The position numbers and the translations under genes were made by a program. Under the pieces are notes generated by a model. That model ran no database searches and was not told the origin of the DNA. It was given only the letters and a program-made list of their open reading frames with translations. Positions 40,628 through 45,233 of a stretch of 64,000 bases of DNA are shown here, one piece after another (the first letter of the stretch is position 1; every line of letters starts with the position of its first letter). Origin of the DNA: Candidatus Heimdallarchaeota archaeon. Its GTDB lineage: Archaea > Asgardarchaeota > Heimdallarchaeia > Heimdallarchaeales > Heimdallarchaeaceae. The stretch is from NCBI GenBank assembly GCA_030603365.1, contig JAUVXV010000013.1, forward strand, positions 45,433 to 109,432. The letters run 5' to 3'.

Positions 40628-41065
40628 TCATTCAGTATTGTCTTGTCCAGCTTTCACAGGAATTTCTTCGGGAGTGGTGGCTGGAACTTCTGCTTTGTCC
40701 TCAACAGGGACACTAACAGGAGTGGGACGAACAGAAATGGGTTCAACTCCAAGTTTTTGTAGTGTTTTAGTATACTCATCAGTGAGGAAGAAATCTTTCA
40801 GAACAATCCAACTAGTAGGGATGATAACTGGAAGCTTACCTATACCTTCTGCACAAGAATGAGAAATCTCATCAAGGGATTCTTTTTTATCAACAGTACC
40901 GCATTTTAGACAAATCTTCCAACGAGCAGATCGTTGATAGAGCTTCTCAACGGTTTCATTATAAATTTCAAAACCTGAACTTAAAGGAGCATCTTGCAGG
41001 TCAAGTGTAAAACGACGGGCTCGAGATTTTATTTGTGTTTTCTCAGCATCTTTGACATCTGGCAT
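40628..41065 (-). CDS. C2HC zinc-ribbon small protein, family member A (unrecognised family)
   Basis: YQRSARWKICLKCG...HSC...LPVIIPTSWIVLKDFF is shared with four paralogs. Good SD AAAGGAGG upstream. Confidence 0.6.
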   Translation of the reverse strand: MPDVKDAEKTQIKSRARRFTLDLQDAPLSSGFEIYNETVEKLYQRSARWKICLKCGTVDKKESLDEISHSCAEGIGKLPVIIPTSWIVLKDFFLTDEYTKTLQKLGVEPISVRPTPVSVPVEDKAEVPATTPEEIPVKAGQDNTE

Positions 41066-41161
41066 TTATTTTCCTCCTTTAAATTTTTATTATATGTGAT
41101 ACATACTAATACATATTATATATATGTGTATGTGTTGGCAAATCTTGCCTATAAACATATT

Positions 41162-41356
41162 TTGTAATCATAATAGACACATAAAGCGGAAACTTCTGCC
41201 TCAATCTTTACTTTCAATTCCTATTAATTAAACATCATTAAACATATTTTACCTTACTATTTAGCATTATTTCGTTTTTTTATAATCTGTTCATATGTCA
41301 TCATAAAGCGGTAATATATGTAATCATAGTTTTGTTTAAATACTATGTCATCATAA
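41162..41356. repeat. iteron-like array of short direct repeats in an AT-rich divergent intergenic region
   Basis: T[AT]TGT[CA]ATCATA[AG] at 41162, 41294, 41317 and 41344 (two copies are the identical 13-mer TATGTCATCATAA). CATAAAGCGG[AT]AA at 41180 and 41302. ATTAAACAT tandem at 41227 and 41237. Confidence 0.7.
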
Positions 41357-41392
41357 CTATTACATAGAACAAGAAAACCAAGGTGGAAAAAA

Positions 41393-41596
41393 ATGAAAAT
41401 GGAAATACAAAAACTGTTGGACCGTGAGCTAAGGAATCTTTACGCGGATCTAACTCAGCTTACCAAAGCTCTTGCAACCAGATATCCTAGAAAACATGAT
41501 CGAGTGTATATCGATTATCGCATTGAAACCACAACTAGGTTTTCGAAACTCGACTTACGAAAGTATTGCGAAAACAAAGGTGATAGAATTGAATGA
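41393..41596 (+). CDS. small coiled-coil protein (67 aa), divergent paralog of 43257..43406
   Basis: MKMEIQKLLDRELRNLYADLTQLTKAL aligns with the N-terminus of 43257..43406. The same upstream cassette CAAGGTGGAAAAAAATG is present. Confidence 0.5.
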   Translation: MKMEIQKLLDRELRNLYADLTQLTKALATRYPRKHDRVYIDYRIETTTRFSKLDLRKYCENKGDRIE

Positions 41597-41735
41597 ACAA
41601 GAATTACACACACTGTTGGATCAGAAAATAAAAGCACTCCATAGGGAGTTGAATCAGCTCAGAAGAGCTCGTCGCACCAGAAGAGCAAAAGCTCGTTCTA
41701 GGTACTCAATCGGGCAAATACCCCTTCAAGGGTAG
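41589..41735 (+). CDS. small coiled-coil Arg-rich protein (48 aa, TTG start), close paralog of 43257..43406
   Basis: (M)NEQELHTLLDQKIKALHRELNQLRRARRTRRAKARSRYSIGQIPLQG versus MTNNELSRTLDQEIRALQKELNELKRARRALRANTRSERLLTQRIPLAG. SD AAGGTGA lies 7 nt upstream of TTG. Confidence 0.5.
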   Translation: MNEQELHTLLDQKIKALHRELNQLRRARRTRRAKARSRYSIGQIPLQG

Positions 41736-41775
41736 GCTCGGTTCTTGCTCCTTTTAATAACCCAGGTGATATGAA

Positions 41776-42039
41776 ATGGCTGTAAAAATACAATTAAAAT
41801 CCTCTCATGACCTAATTGCTGAACATGTAAAGATACTATATGATTTCGAATTTGTAGATGAAGAAAGTTATTACTTATTCCTTAAACAATTAGTTGAATC
41901 ATTACATGCTTCAGTAGAAGAAGAATCAAAGAAAGCTGCAAAACGTATATATGAGAAAACCATTGAGGCAGAAGTTCGAAATGCTAAGGACAAAATCATG
42001 GCAAAGAAGCTTCTCCTGTTTGGGTCAATGTACTATTAA
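41776..42039 (+). CDS. hypothetical small protein (87 aa)
   Basis: SD CCAGGTGAT precedes the ATG. Helical, acidic/basic; belongs to the same micro-gene operon. Confidence 0.45.
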   Translation: MAVKIQLKSSHDLIAEHVKILYDFEFVDEESYYLFLKQLVESLHASVEEESKKAAKRIYEKTIEAEVRNAKDKIMAKKLLLFGSMYY

Positions 42040-42179
42040 TTTGTATGAGGAATATCCCGTGATAAATCTAGCTCTCTTAAAACCTAATCCCGCTTATACC
42101 CTTCCTGGGTATAGCGATTTTTTACGATCACTAAGAAAATTACTAGAATTGAAAACAAAAGAAAATAGAGGTGTCTAAT

Positions 42180-42332
42180 ATGGCAAACAAAGTTGTAAAT
42201 ATAAGAAGAAAAATGAAATATGAAAAAATGAAAGAGAATGCATGGAAAGTTATGGGATATGCATTTTTATTTACCCTATTAATGGTATTGGGGCTCATAA
42301 CCTTAACTGCTTTATCAAATTTCTTACTTTAG
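42180..42332 (+). CDS. single-TM micropeptide (50 aa), family member 1
   Basis: MANKVVNIRRKMKYEKMKENAWKVMGYAFLFTLLMVLGLITLTALSNFLL. SD AGAGGTG. Not in the ORF track because it is under 60 aa. Confidence 0.5.
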   Translation: MANKVVNIRRKMKYEKMKENAWKVMGYAFLFTLLMVLGLITLTALSNFLL

Positions 42333-42549
42333 AAATTTGACACTTTTTTTAATTTTTATTACATTCAGTTACCGATTTTTAGAAATATATTGTTTCTATG
42401 TTGAAATTGTGTAGTAATATTTGAACACACATCTATTCAAATCCGCTTCTAATGCTTATTTTGTAGGTGTTCCTAAATCTAAGGTAATTTGTGCCAACGG
42501 GCAAATGTTTATTAACATGTATGAGTTTATTCTACATGAGTAACGTAAT

Positions 42550-42978
42550 ATGACCGACATGACCAATGCTCGAAAAAAAGCAGTTCGATCTAGAGCAAGA
42601 CGTTTTACGCTAGATCTATGGGATGCTCCGCTTGATTCAGGCTTAGAACTTTATCAAACAATAATTGGTGAATTATATGAAGGGTCATCAAGAATTAGAC
42701 TTTGTTTAAAATGTGGCGCTATTGATTCTATTCAAGATCTTAAGAAAGATAACCACGCTTGTGCTCTTTCATTTAAGAGTTTTCCAGTTTTAGTAACTAC
42801 AAGTTGGAAACTATTATCTGACTTCTTTCTAACAGGTAGATATGTTGAAGCCTTGCAACATCTTGGTGTTGAATTAGGCGTACGAGAAGTTGTTACTGTT
42901 CCAGTTGAGACAACTCCTGAAGTACTTACTACTATTGAAGAACAAGAAACTGCACGTGTATCTGTGTCAGATAAGTAA
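42550..42978 (+). CDS. C2HC zinc-ribbon small protein, family member B
   Basis: RSRARRFTLDLWDAPL...SSRIRLCLKCG...HAC...FPVLVTTSWKLLSDFF. Confidence 0.6.
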   Translation: MTDMTNARKKAVRSRARRFTLDLWDAPLDSGLELYQTIIGELYEGSSRIRLCLKCGAIDSIQDLKKDNHACALSFKSFPVLVTTSWKLLSDFFLTGRYVEALQHLGVELGVREVVTVPVETTPEVLTTIEEQETARVSVSDK

Positions 42979-43020
42979 GTTTTTTTAACTTTTTCCTTCA
43001 ATTTTTTATGTGTTTTTGAG
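42979..43020 (+). terminator. T-rich terminator region after zinc-ribbon gene B
   Basis: Multiple T5-T7 runs immediately after the stop. Confidence 0.4.
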
Positions 43021-43256
43021 TATAAAATACCCCTTTTTTCTATTTGTTTTCCGACATCTTCGGCCATATTTGCCTCTATTTTCTTATTGATTTACTGTGG
43101 TCGTATGTGCAATACAATGCACTAACGACCCAGAAAGGTTGTTTTTTACACCTAAAAAAGATGTCTGAAGAAATCAGACAATTCTTTCTTCTAAAAATGC
43201 CTTTATATATGATGTCGGAGTAAGTCAGACATAGAAAAACCCAAGGTGTAAAAAAA

Positions 43257-43406
43257 ATGACCAACAACGAACTTTCCAGAACACTGGACCAAGAGATCAG
43301 GGCGCTCCAAAAGGAGTTAAACGAGCTTAAAAGAGCTCGCAGAGCCCTTCGAGCTAATACACGCTCAGAACGATTGCTAACTCAGCGCATTCCCCTTGCG
43401 GGATGA
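43257..43406 (+). CDS. small coiled-coil Arg-rich protein (49 aa)
   Basis: MTNNELSRTLDQEIRALQKELNELKRARRALRANTRSERLLTQRIPLAG. Cassette CAAGGTGTAAAAAAAATG upstream. Not in the ORF track. Confidence 0.5.
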   Translation: MTNNELSRTLDQEIRALQKELNELKRARRALRANTRSERLLTQRIPLAG

Positions 43407-43453
43407 GCTGGGTCTTCAATCCCTTTCATAAAACTGAAACGGAGGTGTAAAGT

Positions 43454-43606
43454 GTGTTAAGTCTGCCCCGATTTATTTACAGAATTAAGGTTGAAAAACC
43501 ATGTGTCTATCTCTGGAGAATGCTAAGAATTGCATTACCATTGTTTGTAGCAGGTATAGTCGCAGTAATTGGTTTAGCTCCTGAATTTGCTAGAGTAGTT
43601 ATATAA
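43454..43606 (+). CDS. single-TM micropeptide (50 aa, GTG start), family member 2
   Basis: (M)LSLPRFIYRIKVEKPCVYLWRMLRIALPLFVAGIVAVIGLAPEFARVVI. Cassette GGAGGTGTAAAGTG upstream. Confidence 0.45.
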   Translation: MLSLPRFIYRIKVEKPCVYLWRMLRIALPLFVAGIVAVIGLAPEFARVVI

Positions 43607-43872
43607 AATGAAGAAAAGTGTCCCCCACTTTTCCTTTCATTTATTTATTTACGATTATCATCCCATCCAAGAACTCACGCTGTTTGTATCTTGCTGAACA
43701 GACAAACCTGCAGAGCTCACCATCTGCTTGGGATCAGGAAACAACAAACTCTTACTAACCCAGAGCTTGTGTGCTACCGTCTGTTTCCTGATCCTTTCCA
43801 TTTCTTCAGGATGATAATCAGATTTGAACTCACTAGAGACTTAAAACATGGATCACAAAAGAGGTGTAAAAA

Positions 43873-44016
43873 ATGATTGGTAACGAAAGAAATTTTGTTC
43901 GAAGATTTAAGATAGAAAGAACACTCTCCATTACTTGGAGGTTAATCATCTACATAATTTCTTTGACAGTAATTGTTGTTACAGGGATTTTTTCCCTATC
44001 TGTAATATCCAATTAA
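43873..44016 (+). CDS. single-TM micropeptide (47 aa), family member 3
   Basis: MIGNERNFVRRFKIERTLSITWRLIIYIISLTVIVVTGIFSLSVISN. Cassette AGAGGTGTAAAAAATG upstream. Followed by a T-run terminator. Confidence 0.5.
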   Translation: MIGNERNFVRRFKIERTLSITWRLIIYIISLTVIVVTGIFSLSVISN

Positions 44017-44047
44017 GAAAATATCATGATGAGAATTAGTCCTTTCA

Positions 44048-44075
44048 TCTTTTTTTTTTTTCTTCTTCTTTATTT
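44048..44075 (+). terminator. oligo-T terminator after the micro-gene array
   Basis: T12 run at 44050..44061 followed by TCTTCTTCTTT. Confidence 0.5.
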
Positions 44076-44225
44076 CTAGCAAAAGAGAGTGAAAATAAAT
44101 TTCGTAGGAAGTTTATTACACTTTTATGGTATTAACCATTTTCCTGCCTTATAGATTTCTTTTCCATCCAAATAAATTACTGAATCTTCGCTTTTCATAT
44201 CCTTGAGTATGTCCCAGTGTATTGG

Positions 44226-45233
44226 TTATTCATTTTTTGAACCAACCTCTGCAAATCCTGAACCTAGTGCTAGGTGTACAGTTCCTCCCATTTTCTCATC
44301 GAAGAGCATATTCTTTGTAAATTTCTGAATTCCGTAATTTGTTCCAATTGCTACTTCTCCTAGAATATCGGCGTTTTCCATTTCCAGAACTTTTTCCAAT
44401 ATCTCTTGTCCCTTTGATGCTGTATATTCAACTACCTTACCATCTTTGAACTTTAACCAAATATTTTCAACTTCTTTACCCATATAGATACCTGGATAGG
44501 TAAAACGGATTGTCCCATTTACTGAGTCTTCGACTGGGGATGTGAATACTTCACCATCTGGTAAATTCTTATCTCCGCAAGCATTAATCCACCCTCTTCC
44601 ATCGATGCTTAAAACTAAATCAGTGTCTTCTCCGACGATACGTAACTCCTTACCTTTTCTCAACACTTCTACTATTGCTTCTTGTTCTTTCTTAACATTT
44701 AACCAATGCTCAACAGGATCTTCTTTATCTAGTGCAAGTGCCTTGTAAACAAATTCTTTGTATTCAAAAGACCCCATATTAGCTTCTTGAGCAAAAGCAG
44801 GTGAAGGATATGGACAGATTACCCAATCTAATTCTCCTGAAGCAGATCTCTCAAAATATATTTTTGTGAGTTCTTTATTTGCTTCTCTTGTCATCATTTG
44901 TTTGTCTGGACTAATATTGGTAAGTGCTTTTCTGTTAGTGGAGCTAAATACACTGATGAATTTGTCTGCTAGTTTTATCCCCTGTAAAGCAATAGGGTTT
45001 TGATATTTTAGCTGATGCTCTTGCGCATGTGTGTAAAATAACTCATCTTGACCTGGGATAACTATCCTAATGTTTAGTATGTGTCCTCCAGTTTTAATAA
45101 CTTCCAAATCTATCTCGCGAATCAAGTCTGCTGCATCAATTCCACCTGAGAGTAGAACAGTGTTTCCTTTCTCGACTCTCACTGAATAGTTAACAACAAG
45201 TTTTGCTAGTTTTTCATTAAAATCATCTAACAT
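44226..45233 (-). CDS. M29-family aminopeptidase (AmpS/PepS, aminopeptidase T-like)
   Basis: Global pattern including the C-terminal GGTVHLALG, typical of the thermophilic metalloaminopeptidase family. Confidence 0.65.
   Translation of the reverse strand: MLDDFNEKLAKLVVNYSVRVEKGNTVLLSGGIDAADLIREIDLEVIKTGGHILNIRIVIPGQDELFYTHAQEHQLKYQNPIALQGIKLADKFISVFSSTNRKALTNISPDKQMMTREANKELTKIYFERSASGELDWVICPYPSPAFAQEANMGSFEYKEFVYKALALDKEDPVEHWLNVKKEQEAIVEVLRKGKELRIVGEDTDLVLSIDGRGWINACGDKNLPDGEVFTSPVEDSVNGTIRFTYPGIYMGKEVENIWLKFKDGKVVEYTASKGQEILEKVLEMENADILGEVAIGTNYGIQKFTKNMLFDEKMGGTVHLALGSGFAEVGSKNE

Follow-up and report, generated by a model that had tools for sequence, protein, structure and literature searches.

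What does a dense cluster of seven micro-ORFs, specifying predicted single-pass membrane peptides and small helical proteins, do in the chromosome of a Heimdallarchaeota archaeon? An earlier note on the 64-kb stretch of DNA analysed here (the window) had drawn attention to this cluster, and all seven micro-ORFs translate as it described (Table 1). Its division of the cluster into two modules is also borne out: the modules are paralogous, and each runs from a zinc-type protein (Z) through an A mini-protein to a T2-type and then a T1/T3-type membrane peptide. Four Z paralogues are encoded in the window. The Z family numbers 131 proteins, of which all with a named source are from Heimdallarchaeota, and no Pfam domain was found in it; the position of Z at the head of each module suggests that it may be a regulator.

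Table 1. Coding, promoter, RNA and terminator-like features of the locus, in window coordinates (SD, Shine-Dalgarno site)
Feature	Position	Strand	Remarks
Distal operator-like 21-mer, A1 promoter	41295..41315	.	Degenerate here, 8/10 core matches
TATA-like box TTTAAATA, A1-A2 unit	41335..41342	+	51-58 nt before A1 start; putative promoter element
Proximal operator-like palindrome ATGTCATCATAACTATTACAT, A1 promoter	41345..41365	.	-48 position conserved in L002 and L011
A1	41393..41596	+	67 aa; SD AGGTG at 41381-41385
A2	41589..41735	+	48 aa, TTG start, zipper and Arg-rich; SD AGGTG at 41578-41582
Terminator-like hairpin, end of A2	41730..41750	+	T-rich tail; putative function
B	41776..42039	+	87 aa, mildly acidic, helical; SD AGGTG at 41764-41768
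Terminator-like hairpin, after B	42094..42114	+	Followed by TTTTTT
T1	42180..42332	+	50 aa, T1/T3 sub-family; SD AGGTG at 42169-42173
Distal operator-like palindrome ATGTCTGAAGAAATCAGACAA, A3 promoter	43161..43181	.	-95 to -98
Consensus archaeal TATA box TTTATATA, A3-T2 unit	43202..43209	+	Putative promoter element
Proximal operator-like palindrome ATGTCGGAGTAAGTCAGACAT, A3 promoter	43212..43232	.	Exact ATGTC-N11-GACAT; over expected transcription start
A3	43257..43406	+	49 aa, zipper and Arg-rich; SD AGGTG at 43244-43248
T2	43454..43606	+	50 aa, GTG start, T2 sub-family; SD AGGTG at 43443-43447
Terminator-like hairpin, after T2	43613..43633	+	T-rich tail; alignment-conserved; putative function
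TATA-like box TTTATTTATTTA	43640..43651	+	About 25-35 nt before RNA 5' end; putative function
Three-hairpin RNA	43676..43796	+	~120 nt; candidate 5' leader of T3
T3	43873..44016	+	47 aa, T1/T3 sub-family; SD AGGTG at 43862-43866

Conservation and coding status of the micro-ORFs

The earlier note had made its reading depend on the small ORFs being conserved in related genomes, and at least seven other Heimdallarchaeota assemblies keep the same gene order (L001/L002, L003, L004, L005, L006, L008, L011 and L012). Substitutions in the micro-ORFs are distributed over the three codon positions in the ratio 134:74:200 (p = 2e-13), and dN/dS lies well below 1, as expected under purifying selection. 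Start codons and GGTG motifs are retained in orthologues, in which ORF length is held constant down to 36% identity, and the micro-protein families comprise 26-27 diverged members each, again of constant length. Several of these genes had already been called: T1 corresponds exactly to the NCBI-called protein P0128, P0129 is an ENA-called orthologue of the T3 type, and P0002 and P0131 carry NCBI names in the metagenome-assembled genome of L001. Judged by these patterns of conservation, all seven micro-ORFs are genuine protein-coding genes. At A2 a dN/dS of 0.46-0.66 is accompanied by an unusually low dS, so constraint at the nucleotide level may contribute there.

The locus has so far been found only in assemblies that, where named, belong to Heimdallarchaeota or Heimdallarchaeaceae. 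In the window its neighbours encode a NosD-like surface protein, an M29 peptidase and a DEAD-box helicase; the housekeeping genes around the locus stay the same in genomes that share 55-85% protein identity, and the G+C content of the locus is that of its surroundings. On this comparative evidence inheritance of the locus is vertical.

Translation initiation sites

The near-identical cassette that the earlier note saw reused ahead of the micro-ORFs is real and far from chance, but it is an ordinary archaeal Shine-Dalgarno site and not a special element. RGGTG, the core of the site, coincides with part of GGAGGUGA and precedes each start by 6-8 nt. A purine-rich Shine-Dalgarno motif has its complement at the 3' end of archaeal 16S rRNA, and the sites here resemble those of Shine-Dalgarno-led initiation in archaea generally in being purine-rich, in preceding ATG, GTG or TTG and in being kept in orthologues. 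The mechanism is no different; what is unusual is density, the site being present in all seven micro-genes as opposed to a small minority of the window's long genes. When both strands of the window were searched for RGGTG lying 4-8 nt before a start that opens at least 30 codons, ten sites were recovered, seven of which belong to the micro-ORFs, while GGTG occurs at that distance in only 5-11 of the 46 long open frames (Fisher p = 5e-6 to 2e-4). For T2, the coordinates given earlier (GTG at 43454) stand, whereas the cassette quoted with them ends in a GTG at 43452-43454 that runs straight into a stop; T2 in fact starts at 43454, with the overlapping GTG.

Membrane peptides and their helical neighbours

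Each of the three T peptides, described earlier as single-TM peptides of ~50 aa, is 47-50 aa long and contains one strongly hydrophobic 19-mer (Kyte-Doolittle 2.3-2.6), with an N-terminal flank of net charge +4 to +6 and a neutral C-terminal tail of 5-9 aa. We predict that they are single-pass, N-in, tail-anchored membrane peptides forming two sub-families, T2 and T1/T3. T1 shares 29% identity with T3 (E 3e-5), and T2 is linked to this pair at the profile level only (hhalign probability 70%). The [IV]RR.K.E+ motif reported as common to the three is present, though in T1 a one-residue shift is required. All three appear to be under purifying selection (dN/dS 0.22-0.30 for T1, 0.21-0.54 for T2 and 0.11-0.43 for T3). 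The GTG start of T2 and its GAGGTG are kept in L002, L003 and L004, with ATG in L005. Orthologues of T3 are found in L002, L003, L005, L008 and L012, the copy in L004 being without a canonical start codon; the T3 family comprises 26 clusters, and those with a named source are from Heimdallarchaeota. A T2-like paralogue occurs in L014, and in both L005 and L011 the T2-type anchor belongs to a protein of 137-138 aa and bears a 90-aa extracytoplasmic domain.

The accompanying mini-proteins had been grouped together as Arg-rich, a description that fits only A2 and A3. Neither A1 (pI 9.6) nor B (pI 6.3) is Arg-rich, and these are therefore different proteins. Between A2 and A3 identity reaches 51% across 49 aa (in-window tblastn, E 1e-10), while the likeness of A1 to these two is confined to its N-terminal helix (33-39% identity to A2 and A3 by in-window tblastn; hhalign probability 67% over 25 columns against the A family), its C-terminal half being unrelated. 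A1 has orthologues in L002, L005, L006 and L011 (dN/dS 0.32). A2, which overlaps A1 by 8 nt, has orthologues in L005 and L006 with ATG at the same codon, and orthologues of A3 are 57-82% identical to it (dN/dS 0.18-0.32). We recovered 27 representatives of the A family, with the core LKRARRARRAKA, among 1.84 billion proteins. The AF2 model of A3 is a single helix spanning residues 3-44 (pLDDT 85), and A proteins are accordingly modelled as one long helix with heptad Leu/Ile in the N-terminal half and an Arg-rich C-terminal half (KRARRARRAKA). B is present in L005, L006 and L011 (47-76% identity, dN/dS 0.11-0.18) and absent from L002.

Putative promoters and a candidate leader RNA

At both A-led units the TATA box is flanked on each side, at a fixed distance, by one copy of a 21-bp palindrome (ATGTC-N11-GACAT). 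Only three near-consensus palindromes occur in the window, all of them at the A1 and A3 promoters, versus 0.38 expected. Where the distal copy at A1 is degenerate, L002 and L011 have an exact one at the same -95 position; L005 and L006 have a different repeat in this promoter. At A3 the position of the distal palindrome is conserved in L002, L003, L004, L008 and L012, the proximal palindrome lies at -45 to -48 in seven assemblies, and the TATA box (CCTTTATA) is kept in five of six genomes compared, L004 having GTTTATA. The palindromes could be bound by A, by Z or by a factor encoded elsewhere.

Upstream of T3 lies a previously undescribed structured RNA consisting of hairpin 1 with the loop CUUGCUG, hairpin 2, and a long hairpin 3 with a 13-bp outer stem. 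In 40-nt windows it is 85-100% identical to its counterpart in L002, versus about 70% for the flanking genes, and its folding z-scores range from -3.5 to -6.5 in seven genomes. A covariance model scores the window RNA at 142 bits and detects paralogous copies immediately before T1 in L006 and L011, on the strand of the gene as in the case of T3; no match was found in Rfam. The alignment fitted to the model contains 12 pairs with compensatory changes versus 2-4 in slid controls, whereas one built from sequence alone retains a single compensatory pair; hairpin 2 lacks support. The RNA is absent before T1 in the window and in L002, and a leader is thus not obligatory for T1-type genes. The geometry of the TATA-like box and the RNA is the same in L006. 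Terminator-like sites number nine in the region as compared to 1.8 expected.

The palindromes and the three-hairpin RNA both fall outside what the earlier note had observed.

Proposed role of the locus and alternative readings

We consider the best explanation, at a probability of roughly 0.6, to be that the locus is a vertically inherited, tightly regulated, lineage-specific membrane micro-protein system made up of two paralogous modules. The locus would be tightly repressed, with a set of small tail-anchored peptides as its output and the soluble basic helix of A as a partner or regulator. A would act together with T2 on the cytoplasmic side of the membrane, the RNA would serve as a 5' leader controlling synthesis of T1/T3 peptides after transcription, and the target of the peptides may be either a membrane complex or transporter, which they would modulate, or the membrane, which they would perturb. 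The pairing of a small basic helical protein with a small basic membrane peptide, already remarked on in the earlier note, is seen in both modules, where a T2-type gene follows A, and again in a third locus, where paralogues of the two flank a gene for a transporter of the MFS type.

That third locus bears on a rather unlikely alternative, in which the micro-proteins regulate a larger membrane machine or transporter, or serve it as accessory subunits, and A is a peripheral partner that itself binds no regulatory RNA or DNA. The A paralogue lies directly before the MFS gene on three contigs, and on L014, the only contig whose downstream sequence was examined, the T2 paralogue comes after the transporter; the extracytoplasmic domain carried by the T2-type anchor in two assemblies is also consistent with such a role. 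Against it, no transporter or complex gene is found inside the window's locus. This alternative partly overlaps the preferred explanation and does not exclude it. Bacterial small membrane proteins such as AcrZ, MgtS, KdpF and SgrT are single-pass, about 30-50 aa long and missed by annotation cut-offs, and their genes lie next to those of membrane transporters or are regulated together with them. The A/T2 paralogue pair flanking the MFS gene resembles this arrangement, but there is no homology, and the peptides here are accompanied by a soluble basic helix and by an RNA element.

We regard as doubtful a reading in which T1/T3 (and T2) are membrane-damaging toxins of type I-like modules, with A, B and Z accessory and toxin translation held off by the structured leader together with an unseen antisense or trans RNA. 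We know of no archaeon in which a type I system has been established. The bacterial type I toxins (Hok, Ldr/Fst, TisB, ZorO and DinQ) are likewise shorter than 70 aa with one TM helix, and chromosomal type I loci show a narrow taxonomic distribution and purifying selection (PMC2887945), as does the locus described here; the paralogous copies within one locus and the long, conserved, structured 5' region of T3 add to the likeness. Type I toxins, however, have a characteristic C-terminal charged or aromatic cluster (PMC2887945), which the T peptides lack, their charge cluster being N-terminal and their short tail neutral, which is opposite to the type I arrangement. They also show no sequence relationship to these toxins and are embedded in a larger conserved set (A, B and Z) in an archaeal host. 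Neither Pfam, which includes known toxin families, nor PADLOC returned a match to any toxin, antitoxin or defence family. Predicted duplexes between the leader and neighbouring sense transcripts do not exceed those of shuffled controls, the window's T1 has no leader, and an antisense gene cannot be shown from sequence.

It is quite improbable that A is itself the regulator, a dimeric "zipper-then-basic" helix that would bind the 21-bp palindromes and autoregulate its own promoters, or else bind the leader RNA as an arginine-rich-motif peptide would, with Z unrelated. Lambda N and HIV Rev/Tat are RNA-binding peptides of the arginine-rich-motif class, and bZIP proteins are basic-zipper DNA binders; A resembles both in combining a heptad dimerisation segment and an Arg-rich segment in one continuous helix, and next to its genes lie both a structured RNA and palindromes in the DNA. 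Moreover, the units whose promoters carry the palindromes are precisely those led by A, and the RNA was found in no locus that lacks an A gene. The order of segments in A is nevertheless the reverse of that in bZIP proteins, zipper first and basic region second, A is only 48-55 aa long, and its best sequence match in the PDB, the bZIP-family protein MafG, is not significant (E = 0.19). Neither palindrome nor RNA was found near the A paralogue of the MFS locus, which has a divergent ArsR/HTH-like gene instead, and the differing A1 promoter repeat of L005 and L006 likewise argues against this reading.

A reading prompted by the earlier note's comparison with toxin-antitoxin or holin-like pairs, that of a phage- or mobile-element-derived cassette (a holin/antiholin pair, a lysis cassette or a type II toxin-antitoxin pair), would account for small basic membrane peptides adjoining small basic soluble proteins, but is very improbable. 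The micro-proteins matched nothing in Pfam, NCBIfam, PHROGs, PADLOC or the PDB, no relative of A or Z was found in IMG/VR viral contigs, and a holin-like role is at odds with the absence of phage context. Vertical inheritance between the same housekeeping neighbours, at unchanged G+C content, argues against a mobile element or cassette. Nor do the results offer anything in favour of the earlier note's other suggestion, a ribosome-associated small-protein set. Least probable of all is that the micro-ORFs are chance ORFs in AT-rich DNA, conserved because of non-coding elements: short ORFs are abundant (66 of at least 25 aa overlap one 6-kb stretch) and dS is low at A2, but the codon-position periodicity, low dN/dS, retained start and Shine-Dalgarno sites, preserved lengths and diverged families all speak against it.

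A further archaeal parallel is offered by Methanosarcina mazei, in which RNAs for small proteins have antisense partners and are linked to stress (bioRxiv 10.1101/2025.10.28.685009). Both cases involve small archaeal proteins, short transcripts and RNA-level control (bioRxiv 10.1101/2025.10.28.685009), such transcripts and control being putative here; they differ in phylum, and antisense partners are a feature of M. mazei.

The micro-ORFs are conserved protein-coding genes

An earlier note on this DNA had described an array of very small genes at 41393-44016, and all seven of the open reading frames proposed there are present in the sequence (see table). They fall into two modules, each headed by a gene of the Heimdall-only CxxC...HxC zinc-type family Z: A1, A2, B and T1 make up module 1, and A3, T2 and T3 make up module 2, where A denotes helical mini-proteins and T denotes predicted transmembrane (TM) peptides.

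Features of the micro-gene array and its surroundings in the window
Feature	Coordinates	Length	Remark
TATA box of A1	41335-41342		
A1	41393-41596	67 aa	
A2	41589-41735	48 aa	TTG start, 8-nt overlap with A1
B	41776-42039	87 aa	
B-T1 gap	42040-42179		
T1	42180-42332	50 aa	
TATA box of A3	43202-43209		
A3	43257-43406	49 aa	
T2	43454-43606	50 aa	GTG start
Candidate leader element	43676-43796 (+)		between T2 and T3
T3	43873-44016	47 aa	

A profile built from A2 and A3 retrieved 49-aa relatives, one of which is named by NCBI as coming from a Heimdallarchaeota MAG and lies on a contig with the gene order of the window. Further related loci (given L numbers here) came from a scan of 185,579 species genomes, one metagenome scan and exact-protein look-ups; among the matches listed for the metagenome scan with the A profile were at least one true locus and two spurious high-GC coiled-coil matches. 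When all parts were mapped onto these loci, a single conserved gene order emerged. The possibility, raised in the earlier note, that these small ORFs lack conservation in any related genome is thus clearly contradicted by orthologues that stand in shared order in the relatives.

The micro-ORFs are real protein-coding genes under purifying selection, with dN/dS ratios of 0.32 for A1, 0.11-0.18 for B, 0.22-0.30 for T1, 0.18-0.32 for A3, 0.21-0.54 for T2 and 0.11-0.43 for T3. The ratio for A2 is higher than for the other micro-ORFs (0.46-0.66), with an unusually low dS. Substitutions are distributed 134:74:200 over codon positions 1, 2 and 3 (p = 2e-13), and P0128, a protein that NCBI had already called, matches T1 exactly. 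A HMMER profile search of 1.84 billion representatives gave 27 members of the A family, of 35-79 aa and mostly 48-55 aa, with the core LKRARRARRAKA; the T1/T3 family comprises 26 clusters. Every member of these two families that carries a source name comes from Heimdallarchaeota or Heimdallarchaeaceae. At L004 (6010-6146) the T3 orthologue lacks codons 1-7, and no ATG, GTG or TTG in frame follows the Shine-Dalgarno (SD) site and A8 run; either the gene is a pseudogene or the assembly contains a homopolymer error.

Micro-ORF starts carry ordinary Shine-Dalgarno sites

The string common to the starts is RGGTG with an A-rich spacer (6-8 nt), which precedes all seven micro-ORFs. Over the whole window and both strands, there are ten sites at which RGGTG is followed after 4-8 nt by the start codon of a frame of at least 30 codons, and seven of these are the micro-ORFs. 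Among the 46 long open frames of the window, GGTG lies at that distance from any of the first twelve starts in 11 and at a plausible true start in about five; the enrichment of the motif at micro-ORFs over long frames has a Fisher p of 5e-6 to 2e-4. At orthologous micro-ORF starts GGTG is kept in 19 of 21, with GAGG in the remaining two.

A Shine-Dalgarno site is purine-rich, complementary to the 3' end of 16S rRNA, and located 4-10 nt before the start codon. The complement of the archaeal 16S rRNA 3' end is GGAGGUGA (compare the review PMC7531240). Because the window contains no rRNA gene, complementarity to the anti-SD was taken from established knowledge. The motif and its spacing, its enrichment and its complementarity to 16S rRNA therefore identify what had been called a reused, near-identical initiation cassette as a normal Shine-Dalgarno site: the shared sequence and its enrichment are genuine, and the notion of a special element falls away. 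A2 more probably starts at the TTG at 41589 than at the GTG at 41580, because the GTG falls within the SD site and ATG occupies the position of the TTG in L005 and L006.

The A family is helical and basic, and the T peptides are predicted to be tail-anchored

A2 and A3 are paralogues (51% identity over 49 aa, E 1e-10). The likeness of A1 to this pair is confined to its first ~27 residues (hhalign probability 67%), and B is a protein distinct from the A family. Of the mini-proteins that had been proposed to be Arg-rich relatives, A2 and A3 hold, while A1, which has a pI of 9.6 and is not Arg-rich, and the mildly acidic B drop out. The A family is helical and basic: the AF2 model of A3 is one helix (residues 3-44, pLDDT 85), in which heptad positions L10, I14, L17, L21 and L24 are followed by an Arg-rich half with a basic segment at residues 25-37.

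We rejected several identities for these mini-proteins. In bZIP proteins the basic, DNA-contacting region lies immediately N-terminal to the leucine zipper, whereas in A the order is reversed, with the heptad segment before the basic segment; moreover, A2 and A3 matched no Pfam bZIP family at E up to 1. IMG labels one A-family member, P0164, as DUF1192, an identity set aside because neither A2 nor A3 matched DUF1192 up to E = 1. We also dropped the idea that the C-terminal Gly of A is a modifier-like end, since the family as a whole does not conserve this residue.

T1 is paralogous to T3 (29% identity, E 3e-5), and T2 is tied to both at the profile level only (probability 70%). Consistent with their earlier description as TM peptides of ~50 aa, hydropathy finds one strongly hydrophobic segment in each T peptide (best 19-mer Kyte-Doolittle value 2.3-2.6). 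This segment has an N-terminal flank of +4 to +6 and a C-terminal tail of 5-9 aa with no net charge. Given the positive N-terminal flank, the positive-inside rule predicts an N-in, tail-anchored topology.

A and T2 recur together in three arrangements

In L005 and L011, module 1 contains two extra genes between B and T1, encoding proteins of 42-46 aa and 137-138 aa. The N-terminus of the 137-138-aa protein is a T2-type membrane anchor, and the protein also has an extracytoplasmic domain; the B-T1 interval of L006 is large enough for the same two genes. With this T2-type gene in module 1, both modules therefore run in the order A, T2-type, T1/T3-type. The window has lost this stretch: its B-T1 gap lacks ~0.9 kb that is retained in relatives (compare L005 1408-1961 and L011 7249-8013), where it holds the two extra genes and the candidate leader RNA of module 1. 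Besides this stretch, L002 has also lost B.

A third type of locus, absent from the window, occurs in the same lineage at L014 4184-6863, at L015 3053-5785 and on a JGI contig. Here a 55-aa A paralogue (+) lies directly upstream of a gene for an MFS transporter (+), which in L014 is followed by a 63-aa T2 paralogue (+), and a 211-aa ArsR/HTH-like gene lies divergently on the - strand upstream of the A paralogue. Neither the palindromes nor the leader RNA described below are present at these A-paralogue/MFS loci. The recurrence of the A-T2 association in three arrangements is the best evidence that A and T2 act together.

Paired palindromes flank the TATA boxes of A promoters

A 21-bp palindrome, ATGTC-N11-GACAT, occurs twice, flanking the TATA box, at the A1 and A3 promoters. 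Its distances from the start codon are fixed at -45 to -48 and -95 to -98 in the window, L002, L003, L004, L008, L011 and L012; in L005 this holds for the A3 promoter, where the distal palindrome is at -120. There are three near-consensus palindromes in the 64-kb window (0.38 expected), all at the A1 and A3 promoters. The proximal palindrome covers the expected transcription start, a position that would be typical for an archaeal repressor. Candidate binders of these operator-like palindromes, by position and composition only, are Z and A.

At the A1 promoters of L005 (660-750) and L006 (2385-2470), TTACTGCA direct repeats surround the TATA box in place of the palindrome, and this replacement suggests that the regulator-operator pair has been exchanged in that lineage.

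Terminator-like sites, each a hairpin plus T-run, number nine in 41000-44300 against 1.8 expected, and divide the micro-gene array into very short putative transcription units. One of them (43162-43180) proves to be the distal operator-like palindrome.

A structured element precedes T1/T3-type genes

The leader element is 85-100% identical to its counterpart in L002 (in 40-nt windows), against ~70% for the flanking genes. It folds as three hairpins (z = -4.1), and its G-U pairs favour the + strand. Folded singly, every copy adopts the same shape, with z of -3.5 to -6.5 for the equivalent regions of L003, L004, L012 and the far more divergent L005. A covariance model made from six copies scored the window copy at 142 bits and detected weaker paralogous copies in L006 and L011 (E 2e-4 and 6e-4), whose ends lie 46 and 61 nt before T1. 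Both copies have hairpin 1 with its CUUGCUG loop, and their long third hairpin is wholly different in sequence. The covariation is only suggestive, because the model-fitted alignment contains 12 compensatory pairs (2-4 with slid partners, and 12 reached in 0 of 500 shuffles), whereas the sequence-only alignment contains one; hairpin 2 is unsupported.

We read the element as a candidate 5' leader of T1/T3-type genes. In the window, L002, L003, L004, L005, L006, L008, L011 and L012 its end lies ~45-77 nt upstream of T3 or T1, on the strand of these genes; the window has the module-2 copy only, with no remnant upstream of T1. T2 is followed by a hairpin plus T-run, the window and L006 both have a TATA-like box ~25-35 nt ahead of the element, and there is no T-run between the element and T3. 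The element may instead be an independent small RNA. The duplexes it could form with neighbouring sense mRNAs do not surpass those of shuffled controls. Rfam at permissive thresholds returned chance-level matches only, the best for 43620-43880 scoring 16.8 bits against a gathering score of 50.

Two pairings with the T3 SD site were considered and rejected. That of an anti-SD segment in hairpin 2, inspected by eye, is not conserved between genomes, and a 5-bp pairing of the leader 5' end from RNAalifold is too weak.

Possible roles of the modules

The kinds of component found here (small membrane proteins, leader RNAs and operator-controlled promoters) are already known, and the components themselves all belong to uncharacterised families. 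Sequence searches of Pfam, NCBIfam, PHROGs, PADLOC and PDB gave no significant match for any family: Pfam gave none above threshold, PADLOC a 15.9-bit coiled-coil match only, and PHROGs none below E = 0.03. Nor did full-text literature searches on Asgard small proteins and SD sites, Heimdallarchaeia small RNAs or archaeal type I toxin-antitoxin systems turn up a description of these families.

We favour, with a probability of about 60%, a composite reading in which SD-led small-protein modules combine operator-type repression, control by a leader RNA and joint action of A with T2. Under this reading Z would most likely repress the A promoters by way of the palindromes; T1 and T3 would be controlled post-transcriptionally by the leader RNA; and A would act with T2 at the membrane.

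Most of the remaining probability goes to three alternatives that partly overlap the composite reading: an accessory role for a transporter or complex, a type-I-like toxin role, or A as a nucleic-acid binder. For the toxin role, Fozo et al. (PMC2887945) describe type I toxins as proteins of <70 aa with a predicted TM region and a charged, polar or aromatic cluster C-terminal to the TM helix. The T peptides resemble these toxins in size and in having a predicted TM helix, but their charges are N-terminal, their C-terminal tails of 5-9 aa are uncharged and thus lack the charged cluster, and they have no homology to them.

An unlikely, more ambitious version is an Asgard-specific riboregulated membrane micro-protein system, in which synthesis of the tail-anchored peptides would be gated by a structured leader RNA of a new class, RNA (or the operator) would be bound in trans by the 48-aa "zipper-then-arginine" helix, and Z would be a new transcription factor family with one paralogue per module. 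If true, type I toxin control would have its first counterpart in archaea, or else nucleic-acid-binding proteins would gain a new minimal fold. Two readings that go back to the toxin-antitoxin and holin-like pairs of the earlier note did not survive: a type II toxin-antitoxin or other known defence system finds no known toxin, antitoxin or defence family in Pfam or PADLOC, and a holin or phage lysis cassette is opposed by the lack of any PHROGs family, of relatives of A or Z among IMG/VR viral contigs, and by neighbours that are cellular genes in a locus of uniform G+C content.

Heimdallarchaeia are the archaea most often placed nearest eukaryotes. To our knowledge, their small proteins and non-coding RNAs are almost unexplored, because annotation cut-offs hide such genes. 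Five protein families (A, A1, B, T2 and T1/T3) and Z, with relatives in no curated library, are new here, as are a structured RNA motif and a clear dual-operator promoter architecture. The families, RNA and promoters are defined sharply enough for synthesis and testing, which makes the locus a practical starting point for work on gene regulation and membrane micro-proteins in Heimdall archaea. A 60-aa ORF cut-off throws away genes here that are under selection as strong as that on their neighbours.
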